Source: an uncultured archaeon
GTDB taxonomy: Archaea > Asgardarchaeota > Thorarchaeia > Thorarchaeales > Thorarchaeaceae
Length of the DNA: 41,410 nucleotides
Direction: 5' to 3'
NCBI GenBank assembly: GCA_964610875.1
Contig: CAZSWP010000033.1
Span: 1-41,410 of the forward strand
The position numbers and the translations under genes were made by a program. Below the pieces are notes generated by a model, which saw only the letters and a program-made list of their open reading frames with translations, was not told where the DNA came from and made no database searches. Shown here one piece after another: positions 26,979 to 31,147 of this stretch (position 1 is its first letter; every line of letters starts with the position of its first letter).

Positions 26979-27800
26979 TCACTTAACATCTACAACTCTA
27001 TCTAGACGCTCTGTCGACTCCTTCCGGAAATCATCTCTATCAATAGTGAGCTCAATTGCACCTTCGGGACAGACTGCAATACACCGACCACATCCTCGAC
27101 ACGCATCACTGATTCTGGCTTTTCCGCCAACAAGCTTGATCGCATCAACAAAGCAAATGCCTTCTGTGCAAGTTCCACACCCAACACAATCGTCAGTGAC
27201 TCTTACTTCAACACCCGCCATCTTGGTCACTTTTCTACCAATCTCTGGGTTGATGTCAGGCAGAACTCGCCAGAGGCAGCAGCAGGGACAACAGTTACAG
27301 ATGGTCAGCAGTCTCTCTCCCGGTCTTACATTGAGCCATGCAGAGTCCAGTTTGTTTCTTCCAATCAGGTGTACCAGCCCTGCCTCTCTACATTTTCTGA
27401 CATATTCATGGGCTTCTTCCTTGGAGACCAGTCTACCAAGGTTTGGGTTGATTCCCAGTACTGCCTCTCCTAGAAACAAGCATCCATAGTCCTTAGGATA
27501 GTCCTTACAGTCAGAAGAGTCTCGGCAGATACAGAAGTTCATTATCCAGTGATAATTTGCCTTTTCAATAAAATCATGGACTATCTGTGATGGTAGGGCA
27601 GTCTCAACGGGTCTGTCAAGTTTCTGACCGATGTTGATTGTGATAGAATCGTCCTTTGGAAGGTAGATGATGTCATCTCCTTCAAAGAGCATCTTGTCGA
27701 TGATTCTACCGATGATTGGGGCATTTGTCAGTTTTGCAATCAGACCCACGTTTGGAAAGGTCTGCTTGATCATCTGAACAAGCCAGAGAGGAGCGCCCAT
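26979..27800 (-). CDS. Cys-rich iron-sulfur protein with C-terminal 2x[4Fe-4S] ferredoxin domain
   Basis: CICRDSSDC, GC, ICNCCPCCC, then CVGCGTCTEGIC and CRGCGRCIAVCP. Confidence 0.88.
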   Translation of the reverse strand: MGAPLWLVQMIKQTFPNVGLIAKLTNAPIIGRIIDKMLFEGDDIIYLPKDDSITINIGQKLDRPVETALPSQIVHDFIEKANYHWIMNFCICRDSSDCKDYPKDYGCLFLGEAVLGINPNLGRLVSKEEAHEYVRKCREAGLVHLIGRNKLDSAWLNVRPGERLLTICNCCPCCCLWRVLPDINPEIGRKVTKMAGVEVRVTDDCVGCGTCTEGICFVDAIKLVGGKARISDACRGCGRCIAVCPEGAIELTIDRDDFRKESTERLDRVVDVK

Positions 27801-27943
27801 GATAGGCTTGCAGTAATTCCCGCCCTCTTATTGTTATCGAAACATGAAAATCCCAATTTCAGCAATCTAGTATCATGGTCTAGTGAGATGTCCAAAAGAA
27901 CTATCGATTGATGTGCAAAATGTTAGAATACAATGTCCAAACA

Positions 27944-28933
27944 TCAATAATCGGAGTTGATCAACGAGGGGATGACCTGCGGGAATGAGAGGAACACCCT
28001 GATGAATTTGTGTCCGATTTTATACGCAAGAGACTCATTATTGGGCAATATCCTATTTGCGAGACTTCCTCCTTTGAAGAAGTATCTCTGACCGGGGATG
28101 AGTCGTCCCTCGAGAATTGGTGCTGCGAATATCTCGGTCAAACGAAGAATTAGTGCACGAACTACTCCCTGTTTAATATTCCTTGCAAGCCGTCTAGCTC
28201 TAAGAAGCAAGGACATTATTCGTTTCGCTCGCAGTGTACTGTAGCCTGCCTCTAAGATACGTTTGAGGAAGTTCTTATCATCGGGTTCTAGATCCACGCC
28301 AAGTAGATCCATCTCTTCTTGAGTAACATTGACATATCCTGCTTGATAGTCATTTTTGATATCAAGCAAGTCATCGAGAATGCCGAGTCCCATGCCAAGC
28401 GTGTATGAGAGCTCATCTATGCAACCACCCAGATCAAAATCTGAAAGAAGAAAATACAACTTGAAGAAGGATCGGGCTTTCTTGTAGAGCAGTTGGTCCA
28501 TATCTTTCTGAGACATCACAACTCCTTTTCTGGCCACATCCTCCCATGCACTCTCATATAGGTCCTTTATGACACCAATGGCTTTTCCGCCATAGTACTT
28601 TCTCTCATTGTGAAAGAATTGCATAAGCCATCTGTGTCGATATGGTGCATTAGTATCAAGAGCATAGTCTCCTGCAAACCCGTGTTCTACAACCTCTCGC
28701 TCTGTCTGCATCAATGTCTTTGCTTCTTCTTTACTAAGACCTGGTGCATCAAGCATGTCATCAAAGAGTCGTATATAGCCCCATGATAAGGACCAGGTCT
28801 CTGAGCCTAGGGATTCAGGTACCAATTGTGAGGCATATGTCAGAAAATCGCGGTCTCTCAGGTAAGCTCTGGCAGAATTCACACTTGTAATGTAGCGAGA
28901 AGATTCACGAGCTGAGGGTACAAAAGCACACAT
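27944..28933 (-). CDS. Class I isoprenoid synthase-fold protein (squalene/phytoene synthase-like)
   Basis: WGYIRLFDDMLD (first Asp-rich motif) and GILDDLLDIKNDYQAGYVNVTQEEM (second motif); helical composition. Confidence 0.68.
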   Translation of the reverse strand: MCAFVPSARESSRYITSVNSARAYLRDRDFLTYASQLVPESLGSETWSLSWGYIRLFDDMLDAPGLSKEEAKTLMQTEREVVEHGFAGDYALDTNAPYRHRWLMQFFHNERKYYGGKAIGVIKDLYESAWEDVARKGVVMSQKDMDQLLYKKARSFFKLYFLLSDFDLGGCIDELSYTLGMGLGILDDLLDIKNDYQAGYVNVTQEEMDLLGVDLEPDDKNFLKRILEAGYSTLRAKRIMSLLLRARRLARNIKQGVVRALILRLTEIFAAPILEGRLIPGQRYFFKGGSLANRILPNNESLAYKIGHKFIRVFLSFPQVIPSLINSDY

Positions 28934-29100
28934 GATATATTTACAGTATGCAGGGGATGTTTTATTCTTTTTGAAAATATTATAGAAGGAAGGTAGTTAC
29001 ATCAACTTGTGGAAAGGTCTAGACATCAGGAATAATATGATATTACAAAGCTAATTAGGAGTGGTGTACTACCCAAAACAGGATGCAGTGAGGTCTATAG

Positions 29101-29904
29101 ATGAAGTGTTTTGCCCTACATAGTTACAAAGGTGGTACCGGGAAAACCACTCTGGGTGCCAATATCGCAGCTCTCCTAGCTCAAAAAGGTAAGAACGTCG
29201 CAATGTTGGACCTTGATTTTCAAGCGCCCAGTTTACATACTCTGTTCGGTGTGTCTCCCAAGACCAAGTATATCAACGATTTTCTTGCAGGTGAAGCCTC
29301 TCATAAGGACATTCTCCAAGAGCTCTCTACTACATTCGAACTAAAAGGGAAATTGTCTGTTGCGTTCTCGAATCCTAATGTTGAAGCAATTCGTTCTCAA
29401 CTAGGTAAAGACAGAAAATGGCACATGACAGCGCTCTCTCAGTTGTTAAATCTAAAGAAGACCCTAGAATCCGAAGGCTACCACTATCTAATAATTGATT
29501 CAGCTCCAGGAGTTCATTATTCTAGTGTAAACGCTATTGTTCTCTCCGATTTCACTGTAATTATAGTAAAAATGGACAACTTCGATTTTGATGGCACTTT
29601 GAACATGTTAGCGGGTCTCTATGACCAATTAGACAAACAGACTGTCATCCTCTTCAATAAAGTAGTACCTACAATGTTTGAGGAGCCCCACGAATCACAG
29701 ATGCGTGAGCTTGCTGAAGAGACCTTCGCGGAAAAATCACAGATCCTTGATTTCATAACTTGTTATTGCATGATTCCAATGGGTATGGGTAGCGAGATTC
29801 ATGCCCTGACGCAACCCAATATACCTTTTGTCAAGACTCTGAAAAAGGTGGTGACACAGCTAGCCAAAGTGAAGGTGCCTCCTAGTAAAGGTGGAAAGAA
29901 ATGA
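29101..29904 (+). CDS. MinD/ParA-family (SIMIBI) ATPase
   Basis: Deviant Walker A KGGTGKTT, switch I DLDFQAPSL, Walker B IIDSAPG, FNKV. Confidence 0.92.
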   Translation: MKCFALHSYKGGTGKTTLGANIAALLAQKGKNVAMLDLDFQAPSLHTLFGVSPKTKYINDFLAGEASHKDILQELSTTFELKGKLSVAFSNPNVEAIRSQLGKDRKWHMTALSQLLNLKKTLESEGYHYLIIDSAPGVHYSSVNAIVLSDFTVIIVKMDNFDFDGTLNMLAGLYDQLDKQTVILFNKVVPTMFEEPHESQMRELAEETFAEKSQILDFITCYCMIPMGMGSEIHALTQPNIPFVKTLKKVVTQLAKVKVPPSKGGKK

Positions 29905-30512
29905 TTCGAGCCGTGTATATCCTGATTGATGGGGGTATATGTATATACAGTAGAGCCTATGACAAAGCTCTTGCTGACCCCCTGCTCATTAGTAGTTTCA
30001 TCTCAGCGATATCCCAGTTCAGCAGGGAGGCTATGGGAAATGACCTGCGAGGTATCGAGGCTGAAGGGCGATTTGTCTACATCCTCGACAGTGATAGAAT
30101 TGTGGTAAGCGTGGTTGTAGACCACCCTGATGACATCAGTGCCAATATGATTGAATATATCGCATTGAACTTTCTCGGTAAATACTCCAACAAATTAGGA
30201 GGGGACACAGGAGACCCTGACCTATTTACAGGATTCGACAAGGTCCTTGACAAGGTTATTCCAATTCACCTCATCCGTGAAGACAAGATTGATCCTAAGG
30301 AACCCCTTGATGCCTTGACGCTGATTGAGATTCCTAGTGACCTGCGAGAGATTGCAATGGTTCTGATTCGTGAGCACTCGGTGACTGCACAACAGATTGC
30401 TGACGAGCTAAAGATGAAAGAAGAAAAGGCAATAGAACGTCTTGAAAAAATAGTAGAGTTGGGCAAGGCTGGAAGACGGGAAACCCGGACTGGTTCTGTA
30501 TACTTCGTCTAA
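29901..30512 (+). CDS. Longin-like domain protein with C-terminal winged helix-turn-helix
   Basis: N-terminal pattern VYILIDGGICIYSRAY / DPLLISSFISAISQFSREA / three strands / helix ending FLGKY / FTGFDKVLD fits longin topology. C-terminal TAQQIADELKM..EKAIERLEKIVELG plus a beta-wing. ATGA overlap with the ATPase. Confidence 0.65.
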   Translation: MIRAVYILIDGGICIYSRAYDKALADPLLISSFISAISQFSREAMGNDLRGIEAEGRFVYILDSDRIVVSVVVDHPDDISANMIEYIALNFLGKYSNKLGGDTGDPDLFTGFDKVLDKVIPIHLIREDKIDPKEPLDALTLIEIPSDLREIAMVLIREHSVTAQQIADELKMKEEKAIERLEKIVELGKAGRRETRTGSVYFV

Positions 30513-30525
30513 CTGTTTCCTGACT

Positions 30526-30541
30526 TGAAAACATTTATGCA
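30526..30541 (+). promoter_or_regulatory. Putative archaeal BRE/TATA promoter for a near-leaderless def transcript
   Basis: GAAAA-CA-TTTATGC, with the TATA-like element about 23-29 nt upstream of ATG 30563; no SD before the ATG. Confidence 0.4.
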
Positions 30542-30562
30542 ACTCTCAGCTTCTTTTGGAAC

Positions 30563-31063
30563 ATGGCAGTGCGAGAGATGCTTCTTCTTGGGAATCCTGC
30601 ACTCTACAAGGTATCAGAACCTGTATCGAACGAAGAGGTCTCTTCTTTGAGAAAGACTATTGATGACCTTCATGACACAATGATCGATTTCCGAGAACGT
30701 TATGGTGCTGGGAGAGCAATCGCTGCGCCGCAGATTGGTGTATTCAAGCGTCTCATCTACATGCACATCGACAGACCTGTCGTGTTCATCAATCCTGAAC
30801 TGACTGACAAGAGTAAAGAGATGATTGAGGTATTGGATGACTGCATGTGTTTTCCGGACCTACTGGTCAAAGTATTGCGACATAAGAGATGCGTGTTCAA
30901 GTATAAGGATGAGGAATGGAACATGTGTAGTATGAATCTGGAGGATGACCTCTCAGAACTTCTCCAACATGAATATGATCATCTCAATGGTATTTTAGCG
31001 GTTGAGCGTGCAATTGATGGTCATTCCTTTACACTCAGGAGCGAGAGGCACTTTCTGGAATAA
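30563..31063 (+). CDS. def: Peptide deformylase (variant motifs)
   Basis: LGNPAL, GAGRAIAAPQIG, FINPE, DDCMCFP (in place of EGCLS), QHEYDHLNG. Confidence 0.9.
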   Translation: MAVREMLLLGNPALYKVSEPVSNEEVSSLRKTIDDLHDTMIDFRERYGAGRAIAAPQIGVFKRLIYMHIDRPVVFINPELTDKSKEMIEVLDDCMCFPDLLVKVLRHKRCVFKYKDEEWNMCSMNLEDDLSELLQHEYDHLNGILAVERAIDGHSFTLRSERHFLE

Positions 31064-31147
31064 ATGGTAAATTGCGTTCAATTAACAAGCCTCATATGGT
31101 TTATTGTATATCTTCAGACTACCTTGTGACCAGAGGATGAGAGTCCA

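Follow-up and report, generated by a model that had tools for sequence, protein, structure and literature searches.

A translationally coupled ParA/MinD-type ATPase and longin–winged-helix gene pair in a Thorarchaeia genome: a candidate longin-fused form of the archaeal ParA-wHTH module

Introduction

Longin domains are eukaryotic signature proteins (ESPs) of Asgard archaea and are commonly treated as proteins that regulate small GTPases during membrane traffic. What may such a domain do when its gene is coupled to that of a ParA/MinD-type ATPase? The question is raised by a locus in the genome of an uncultured Thorarchaeaceae archaeon (assembly GCA_964610875.1), found within a 41,410-nucleotide stretch of contig CAZSWP010000033.1 that is hereafter called the window. 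On the forward strand, a gene for a 267-amino-acid ATPase (P0001; 29101–29904) is followed by a gene for a 203-amino-acid protein (P0002; 29901–30512) with an N-terminal longin domain and a C-terminal winged helix-turn-helix (wHTH) domain. A preliminary description, made from the sequence, had proposed an undescribed two-gene switch or positioning system, in which the longin would activate or adapt the ATPase and the wHTH would tether it to DNA or to a protein cargo. The comparisons presented here favor a different reading with moderate confidence: the locus would be a two-gene ParA-wHTH module of archaea in its longin-fused form. The chromosome would carry it as an optional cassette, and it would serve as an ATP-controlled assembly switch for accessory or foreign DNA.

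Results

Coupling and co-inheritance of the two genes

The ATPase and partner genes share the four bases of an ATGA stop/start overlap (29901–29904, forward strand), a layout of translational coupling that is evident from the sequence and the list of open reading frames (ORFs). Overlap or abutment of the two genes recurs in orthologs, and close homologs carry Thorarchaeota labels. A search of sequencing runs listed DNA runs of a single microbial-mat study and no RNA runs. The longin-wHTH family occurs in nearly all of the 151 Asgard genomes surveyed, with numerous paralogs. A homolog of P0001 lies directly upstream at 15 of the 16 best-scoring partner loci, which represent the GTDB families here labeled f1, f2, f14, and f22, with amino acid sequence identity to P0001 as low as 27%; the sole exception has a TPR gene upstream in place of the ATPase. 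The ATPase/longin-wHTH gene pair is thus an old one, translationally coupled and co-inherited in several Asgard families, and the ATGA overlap, the size of the partner, and the pairing itself all hold up as given in the preliminary description.

The window's own genome has four ParA/MinD-like ORFs (detected with P0001) and 30 ORFs matched by the profile of the longin N-domain. Of these ATPases, the two with the highest similarity are both coupled by a four-nucleotide overlap to longin-wHTH genes; two such adjacencies among four ATPases and 30 longins make a chance origin unlikely. The second operon (contig C22, 20617–23689) encodes longin/multi-wHTH proteins of 308 and 429 amino acids, followed with a four-nucleotide overlap by a 254-amino-acid ATPase and then by an unknown protein of 148 amino acids. 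Of the 26 genomes sampled from the same family, 24 have a C22-like ATPase paralog, and two longin genes precede it in two genomes that were fetched. This C22-type version thus seems to belong to the core genome and not to be an optional element.

A second tier of the longin-wHTH family has no ATPase alongside. It includes a solo paralog of 204 amino acids (C5:79978–80592) that is 35% identical to P0002. A dozen or more further genomes sampled from the family have orthologs of this paralog, which are also solo and mostly have a basic wHTH (isoelectric point, pI, 8–9.7). Furthermore, many of the 30 longin ORFs carry the domain at the N- or C-terminus of proteins of 300–1300 amino acids.

Domain architecture of the partner protein

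A profile search of 1.8 billion representatives with P0002 returned 474 relatives, of which about 50 are full-length proteins of 200–220 amino acids. The structure of P0002 was modeled by AlphaFold2 with a 63-sequence alignment and has a predicted local distance difference test score (pLDDT) of 92.6; a single-sequence model with a pLDDT of 39 was discarded. In the alignment-based model, residues 1–125 (29901–30275, forward strand) have the topology beta-beta-alpha-beta-beta-beta-alpha-alpha, which is the longin order. An exhaustive structural comparison gave Z scores of 13.4 for Fuzzy, 13.3 for Bet5, 12.6 for VAMP7, 12.2 for Sec22, and 12.0 for AP-4 mu, with alignments of about 120 residues and root-mean-square deviations (rmsd) of 2.3–3.6. 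Further Z scores were 11–12 for Mon1 and the AP mu/sigma chains, 10.6–11.3 for SRX, and about 11 for MglB, with roadblock/MglB proteins somewhat lower. Foldseek agrees in matching P0002 to AP2 mu/sigma, TRAPP, and MON1, and a search of the PDB with the P0002 family profile found Bet5 (E = 1.6e-5) and MON1 (E = 2e-4). P0002 itself matched no Pfam family, and Fuz_longin_1 was matched by 11 of 63 relatives (best E = 2.7e-6). On the evidence of the model, the N-terminal domain of P0002 is a true longin fold.

The longin domain is joined by a linker (residues 126–136; 30276–30308) to the winged helix (residues 137–203; 30309–30512, including the stop codon), both on the forward strand. The linker is in the least conserved stretch of the protein (mean information content of 1.40 for residues 120–139). 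The closest structural match of the winged helix is TFE-alpha (Z of 9.9–10.0 and rmsd of 1.3–1.5 over 66–67 residues), and its family profile matches TFE, ArsR, MarR, and, weakly, AspA (E = 6e-4), placing it in the TrmB/MarR/ArsR/TFE fold type. The confident model and the two structure searches therefore agree with the longin and wHTH domains of the preliminary description. Across the family, the beta1 and alpha1 elements of the longin are best conserved, and the exposed positions of the recognition helix are least conserved.

The charge of the wHTH differs strongly among these proteins. In P0002 the domain is acidic (pI 5.4, net charge about -2), though its wing (KAGRRETR) keeps basic residues, and in the longin-fused, ATPase-coupled orthologs it is mostly acidic or neutral. 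By contrast, the wHTH of partners that have no longin is mostly strongly basic (pI of about 10–11, net charge of +5 to +12). DNA binding by the P0002 wHTH is doubtful because of this difference, which weakens the tethering to DNA that had been suggested for the domain.

Sequence features of the ATPase

P0001 has the motifs KGGTGKT (deviant Walker A; residues 10–16; 29128–29148), DLD (residues 37–39; 29209–29217), DSAPG (residues 133–137; 29497–29511), and FNK (residues 185–187, with NK at residues 186–187; 29656–29661), all on the forward strand. Its Pfam scores exceed the cut-offs for AAA_31 (73.5 vs. 27 bits), CbiA (62.7 vs. 25.4 bits), and ParA (52.1 vs. 27.1 bits). The deviant Walker A motif, D37/D39, D133, and the profile scores identify it as a ParA/MinD ATPase of the SIMIBI class, as had been described. 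Residues S8, G11, G12, G14, D39, D133, P136, and N186 are invariant in the ATPase alignment, and the Walker A lysine K15 is kept in 35 of the 36 ATPases of the clade, with arginine solely at locus L031. Judged from these residues, P0001 is equipped with everything that ATP-dependent sandwich dimerization and hydrolysis would need.

Assignment to a named subfamily is less direct. The nearest solved structures are those of Soj and MinD (E = 1e-10 to 1e-7), and the best NCBIfam match is the AAA_KGGVGR variant family (70 bits, under the cut-off of 90). The score of P0001 is 56.1 for archaeal MinD (TIGR01969, minD_arch; cut-off 201.75), 46.9 for TIGR01968 (cut-off 212.9), and 55.8 for partition ParA (NF041546, ParA_partition; cut-off 180), and it falls far under the equivalog cut-offs of the other named NCBIfam families. 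MinD proper was rejected as an identity for P0001 given these low equivalog scores, an unconserved C-terminal tail, and no adjacent MinC or MinE gene. A ParA of a ParABS or plasmid partition system was likewise rejected, given the low profile score, no ParB gene, and two-copy repeats only.

Two further features had been singled out in the preliminary description. The basic C-terminal tail KVKVPPSKGGKK (residues 256–267; 29866–29901, forward strand) is present in P0001, which is itself basic (pI 8.3), but the alignment shows that the tail is not conserved. Since orthologs occur without it, a functional role of the tail is not supported, and the idea of a membrane or DNA anchor at this position was rejected. 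The CYC motif (residues 221–223; 29761–29769, forward strand) is indeed present and has a wider distribution, with P-C-x-C kept in about two-thirds of the ATPase clade, including Bathyarchaeia members (alignment A3). The longin-coupled branch of f14/f22 has nevertheless lost the CxC, as have the C22-type ATPases. Located in the strand after the NK motif, P-C-x-C may form a metal or redox site on the surface that faces the partner or the other subunit of the dimer.

The wHTH domain as the constant partner

To place the pair among its more distant relatives, 20 Asgard loci around such relatives of P0001 were fetched, plus three Bathyarchaeia loci. The P0002 wHTH profile matches neighbors of the ATPase at 16 of the 20 Asgard loci and at all three Bathyarchaeia loci; at the other four distant Asgard loci, no neighbor matches it. 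Most ATPases of families f10, f12, f13, f16, f22, f27, and f5 adjoin such a match (E = 1e-5 to 1e-16), usually directly upstream of the ATPase and in some loci downstream as well. A longin domain is found in none of the wHTH-matching neighbors at these distant Asgard loci. The Bathyarchaeia ATPases are 39–41% identical to P0001 and are preceded, with overlapping stop and start codons, by proteins of 119–136 amino acids that consist of a long N-terminal helix (coiled coil) and the same wHTH (E = 1e-15 to 1e-19).

All of these related ATPases form one clade in the phylogenetic tree (support 85/97). The longin-coupled ATPases are three subclades within it, and their mutual branching order is not settled by the tree. 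Because relatives keep a wHTH beside the ATPase without having a longin, these comparisons of sequences and gene order identify the wHTH, and not the longin, as the constant partner domain of the ATPase clade. By the same comparison, the longin is an N-terminal elaboration that replaces the coiled coil or another non-longin N-terminal region. The proposal that the longin is the element that regulates the ATPase is not supported, given the constancy of the wHTH across the clade and the many relatives that lack a longin.

A Bathyarchaeia relative is found in a small island (contig L079; 3587–14203), which contains a simple module of coiled-coil-wHTH, ATPase, and PadR-like genes, together with HepT/MNT toxin–antitoxin genes, a UPF0175 antitoxin gene, a lone large-terminase gene, and small unknown ORFs.

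An optional cassette at a fixed chromosomal site

The distribution of the pair among close relatives is patchy. With a threshold of E <= 1e-77, orthologs of the cassette ATPase were found in seven of the 26 sampled family genomes, plus one genome of a sister family. Within two genera, the cassette is present in one of three and one of two genomes, respectively, most of which are 93–99% complete. In three genomes that lack the cassette, the flanking UGDH, Fe-S, (def), and UPF0182 genes are adjacent. As these flanks adjoin where the pair is missing, the pair is a clean presence/absence cassette at a fixed site. More broadly, the gap that separates the Fe-S gene from def/UPF0182 varies in content among Thorarchaeia (window 26979–31147 compared with L004–L006 and L067–L070); it contains the ATPase/longin pair and the SQS/PSY-like gene here and, elsewhere, a 1187–1217-amino-acid fn3 protein with the pair, or nothing.

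The neighbors of the pair in the window are a divergent SQS/PSY-like gene, genes for an LdpA-like Fe-S protein, a peptide deformylase (def), and a UPF0182 protein, and genes for sugar-nucleotide enzymes. None of the genes that adjoin the pair in the window encodes MinC, MinE, or ParB, in line with the preliminary description. In close relatives, the pair points in the same direction as def and UPF0182. The UPF0182 and LdpA-like Fe-S genes were considered as parts of the system and rejected, as both stay adjacent without the pair and the synteny of UPF0182 with the pair is confined to close relatives. In this archaeon, the gene that separates UPF0182 from the partner gene encodes a peptide deformylase (30563–31063; Pfam E = 2e-37) and is found at only some of the orthologous loci.

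Between the divergent SQS/PSY-like gene and the ATPase gene is an intergenic region of 167 nucleotides (28934–29100; the ATPase gene downstream is on the forward strand), which is the presumed promoter and contains TGATATTAC at 29038–29046. The motif (T)GATATTAC occurs 60–175 nucleotides 5' of the ATPase start in five of 10 orthologous operons (the window at 29038–29046, L004, L021, L024, and L031), where it may be a TATA-like promoter element or an operator.

Discussion

A proposed longin-fused ParA-wHTH module

ParA-wHTH systems belong to the ConB2 assemblage as described in an October 2026 preprint, in which they are a computational prediction only (Li, Burroughs, and Aravind, bioRxiv, 10.64898/2026.10.19.760177). 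These mainly archaeal systems consist of a ParA gene and one or more genes for a distinctive wHTH (PwHTH1) with an elongated N-terminal helix, which is sometimes fused to a V4R or profilin/longin-like domain; their predicted role is the interception and coating of invader DNA (10.64898/2026.10.19.760177). The two-gene locus of the window may plausibly be the longin-fused form of such a module, and this is the explanation that we favor with moderate confidence. Under this model, the partner would dimerize or multimerize via its longin domain, in which beta1 and alpha1 are best conserved, and would engage the ATP-bound ATPase dimer, so that the binding and hydrolysis of ATP act as the on/off control of a higher-order assembly. 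In the simple relatives, the strongly basic wHTH would place this assembly on DNA. In the orthologs of the window pair, which have an acidic wHTH, target recognition may depend on the recognition helix, which is variable, together with the basic wing, or else on the basic ATPase or a protein target. The interaction of partner and ATPase, the stimulation of the ATPase, and the binding of DNA may all be part of this mechanism. A predicted complex of the ATPase dimer with two ATP and one partner scored 0.58 (control 0.40) and is not counted for or against binding. As for the biological role, the dispensability of the cassette and the location of its relatives in accessory islands suggest that it handles accessory or foreign DNA, in exclusion or maintenance, and that it would not serve division, chromosome segregation, or membrane traffic.

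Several observations weigh against this explanation. The wHTH of P0002 is acidic, as noted above. No defense or mobile-element genes are near the pair in the window, and the PADLOC matches were limited to generic similarity to P-loop and wHTH proteins (PDC-M28B and RmrA). ConB2 is marked by an arginine where Walker A would have its second lysine, and ParA-wHTH systems by a rapidly evolving wHTH (10.64898/2026.10.19.760177), whereas the P0001 clade keeps the lysine in all but one of its 36 members. Moreover, although the exposed recognition-helix positions of the wHTH vary more than any others in the family, the orthologs are not fast-evolving: the ATPase is 67% identical among them, compared with 65–70% for neighboring genes, and the partner is 51–54% identical, compared with 48–53% for the adjacent epimerase (the overall range of identity among P0002 orthologs is 51–61%). 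Finally, the near-universal presence of the C22-like ATPase paralog in the family would suit a housekeeping role of that version.

Alternative explanations

An explanation closer to the preliminary description is a SIMIBI switch under the control of the longin. The longin would act on the ATPase in the way that platforms of the longin/roadblock type act on small GTPases, similar to a GTPase-activating protein, a guanine nucleotide exchange factor, or a scaffold, and the wHTH would tether the pair to a cargo or to DNA, for positioning or signaling unrelated to mobile DNA. The true longin fold with its conserved platform elements (beta1 and alpha1), the longin-bearing partners in three separate ATPase subclades, and the second longin-wHTH/ATPase operon, whose ATPase type is found in 24 of 26 family genomes, are all consistent with such a switch, and an acidic wHTH suits protein binding. 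In addition, ParA is found elsewhere in place of MglA beside MglB (10.64898/2026.10.19.760177). However, the ATPase-wHTH pairing persists without a longin, indicating that the basic partnership does not require one, and even among genomes of one genus the cassette is dispensable. The pair is accompanied by neither a conserved membrane-targeting helix nor a cargo gene, and its UPF0182 and Fe-S neighbors stay in place without it. We consider this explanation unlikely. An alternative based on DNA partition, with the wHTH as a centromere-binding protein and the ATPase as a ParA motor, could be derived from a plasmid or provirus or be chromosomal, and has counterparts in type Ib ParA-ParG, Sulfolobus SegAB, and pNOB8 ParA-AspA-ParB. 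It would account for the best PHROG match of P0001 (ParA-like partition protein, 5e-31, a generic family; the partner has no match in PHROGs), for the Soj/ParA structures among its nearest solved relatives, for the matches of the C-terminal profile to AspA and other DNA-binding wHTH proteins, and for the situation in Bathyarchaeia, where the wHTH partners are basic and a terminase gene lies close to the module. It conflicts, however, with the locus itself: a repeat search of the flanking intergenic DNA found short two-copy repeats only and no iterated or palindromic centromere-like array, the neighborhood of the pair in the window is chromosomal and has no replication, integrase, or virus genes, and the wHTH of P0002 is acidic. 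In addition, most genomes of the family lack the cassette, which therefore cannot be what segregates the chromosome. Partition is therefore quite improbable in our judgment.

Local control of transcription is a further explanation, in which the wHTH represses or activates its own operon or def and UPF0182 and the ATPase modulates this activity, as in FleN-FleQ or the autorepression by P1 ParA. The TrmB/MarR/ArsR/TFE type of the winged helix fits such a role, and so do the occurrence of GATATTAC upstream of half of the 10 orthologous operons and the shared direction of the pair, def, and UPF0182 in close relatives. Nonetheless, these neighbors persist side by side where the pair is missing and thus do not depend on it, their synteny with the pair is limited to close relatives in the case of UPF0182, and the recurring motif may be just a TATA-like promoter element. 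This leaves transcription control very improbable. A more specific proposal concerns the longin-fused branch, in which a SIMIBI ATPase would have acquired an Asgard longin as its regulatory platform and the wHTH would have turned from a DNA reader into a protein adaptor. Such a change of the wHTH would be suggested by its reversed charge (about -2, from about +7), which provides a concrete hypothesis of a change in function, but the proposal as a whole remains speculative, with a rather low probability. If true, it would represent a prokaryotic longin-NTPase switch outside the Ras superfamily, with parallels to the combination of SRX and a SIMIBI protein in the receptor of the signal recognition particle and to that of longin and winged helix in NPRL2/3.

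Implications for Asgard longins

A family of proteins with a longin and a C-terminal domain, named NPRL2-like, has been reported from most Thor and a few Loki genomes (Liu et al., 10.1101/2020.10.19.343400), and Tran et al. (PMC10933270) noted that Asgard longin genes seldom share operons with small GTPases. With these Thorarchaeota proteins already reported, and with ParA-wHTH systems that include longin-like fusions defined in the 2026 preprint, the kind of system at this locus can no longer be called undescribed. Here and in the second operon of the genome, longins are genetically tied to ParA/MinD-type ATPases and to a winged helix that simpler archaeal ParA-wHTH modules also have. At least some of the expansion of Asgard longins may thus be part of an ATPase system that is prokaryotic and possibly related to mobile DNA, and not of proto-trafficking, and such an assignment affects the reading of ESP counts. 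Furthermore, P0001 and P0002 are a compact and well-folding pair, convenient for experiments on ParA-wHTH modules, which have so far been predicted computationally.

Comparison with known systems

In MinD/MinE, ParABS, SegAB, and pNOB8 ParA-AspA-ParB, as in the locus of the window, a deviant-Walker-A ATPase has a small partner that is co-transcribed with it, presumably so in the window, and AspA of pNOB8 is a wHTH protein that weakly matches the C-terminal profile of P0002. Unlike those systems, the locus lacks MinE, MinC, and ParB as well as a conserved membrane-targeting helix and centromere-like repeats. With NPRL2/NPRL3 of GATOR1, P0002 shares only the general architecture of a longin and a C-terminal winged-helix-type domain. 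P0002 is far shorter (203 amino acids) and has a single winged helix, and its partner is a ParA-type ATPase and not a Rag GTPase. The Pfam family NPR2 (PF06218) has no match at the P0002 locus, the best match in the genome (E = 0.16) being elsewhere. GATOR1 chains are not among the 50 structure matches listed, by which a similarity is not excluded.

MglA-MglB, TRAPP Bet5-Trs23, Mon1-Ccz1, and SRX of SR-alpha with SR-beta have the same fold as the N-terminal domain of P0002. In MglA-MglB and the other longin platforms, a longin or roadblock protein is likewise paired, genetically or physically, with a P-loop NTPase switch. The differences are that the NTPase of the window is a SIMIBI ATPase of the ParA/MinD type and not a Ras-like GTPase, and that the longin is dispensable in related modules.

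The ParA-wHTH system departs from the locus in some respects: P0002 has a full longin rather than a profilin-like domain, its wHTH is acidic, the ATPase gene precedes the partner gene, the orthologs are not fast-evolving, and the neighborhood is one of sugar metabolism. At the same time, an ATPase of the ParA clade is coupled to a wHTH gene, the wHTH profile joins P0002 to the coiled-coil-wHTH partners, and the serine at the start of Walker A fits the PriB2 branch. When matched against the description given in the preprint, the pair fits the definition of a ParA-wHTH system.

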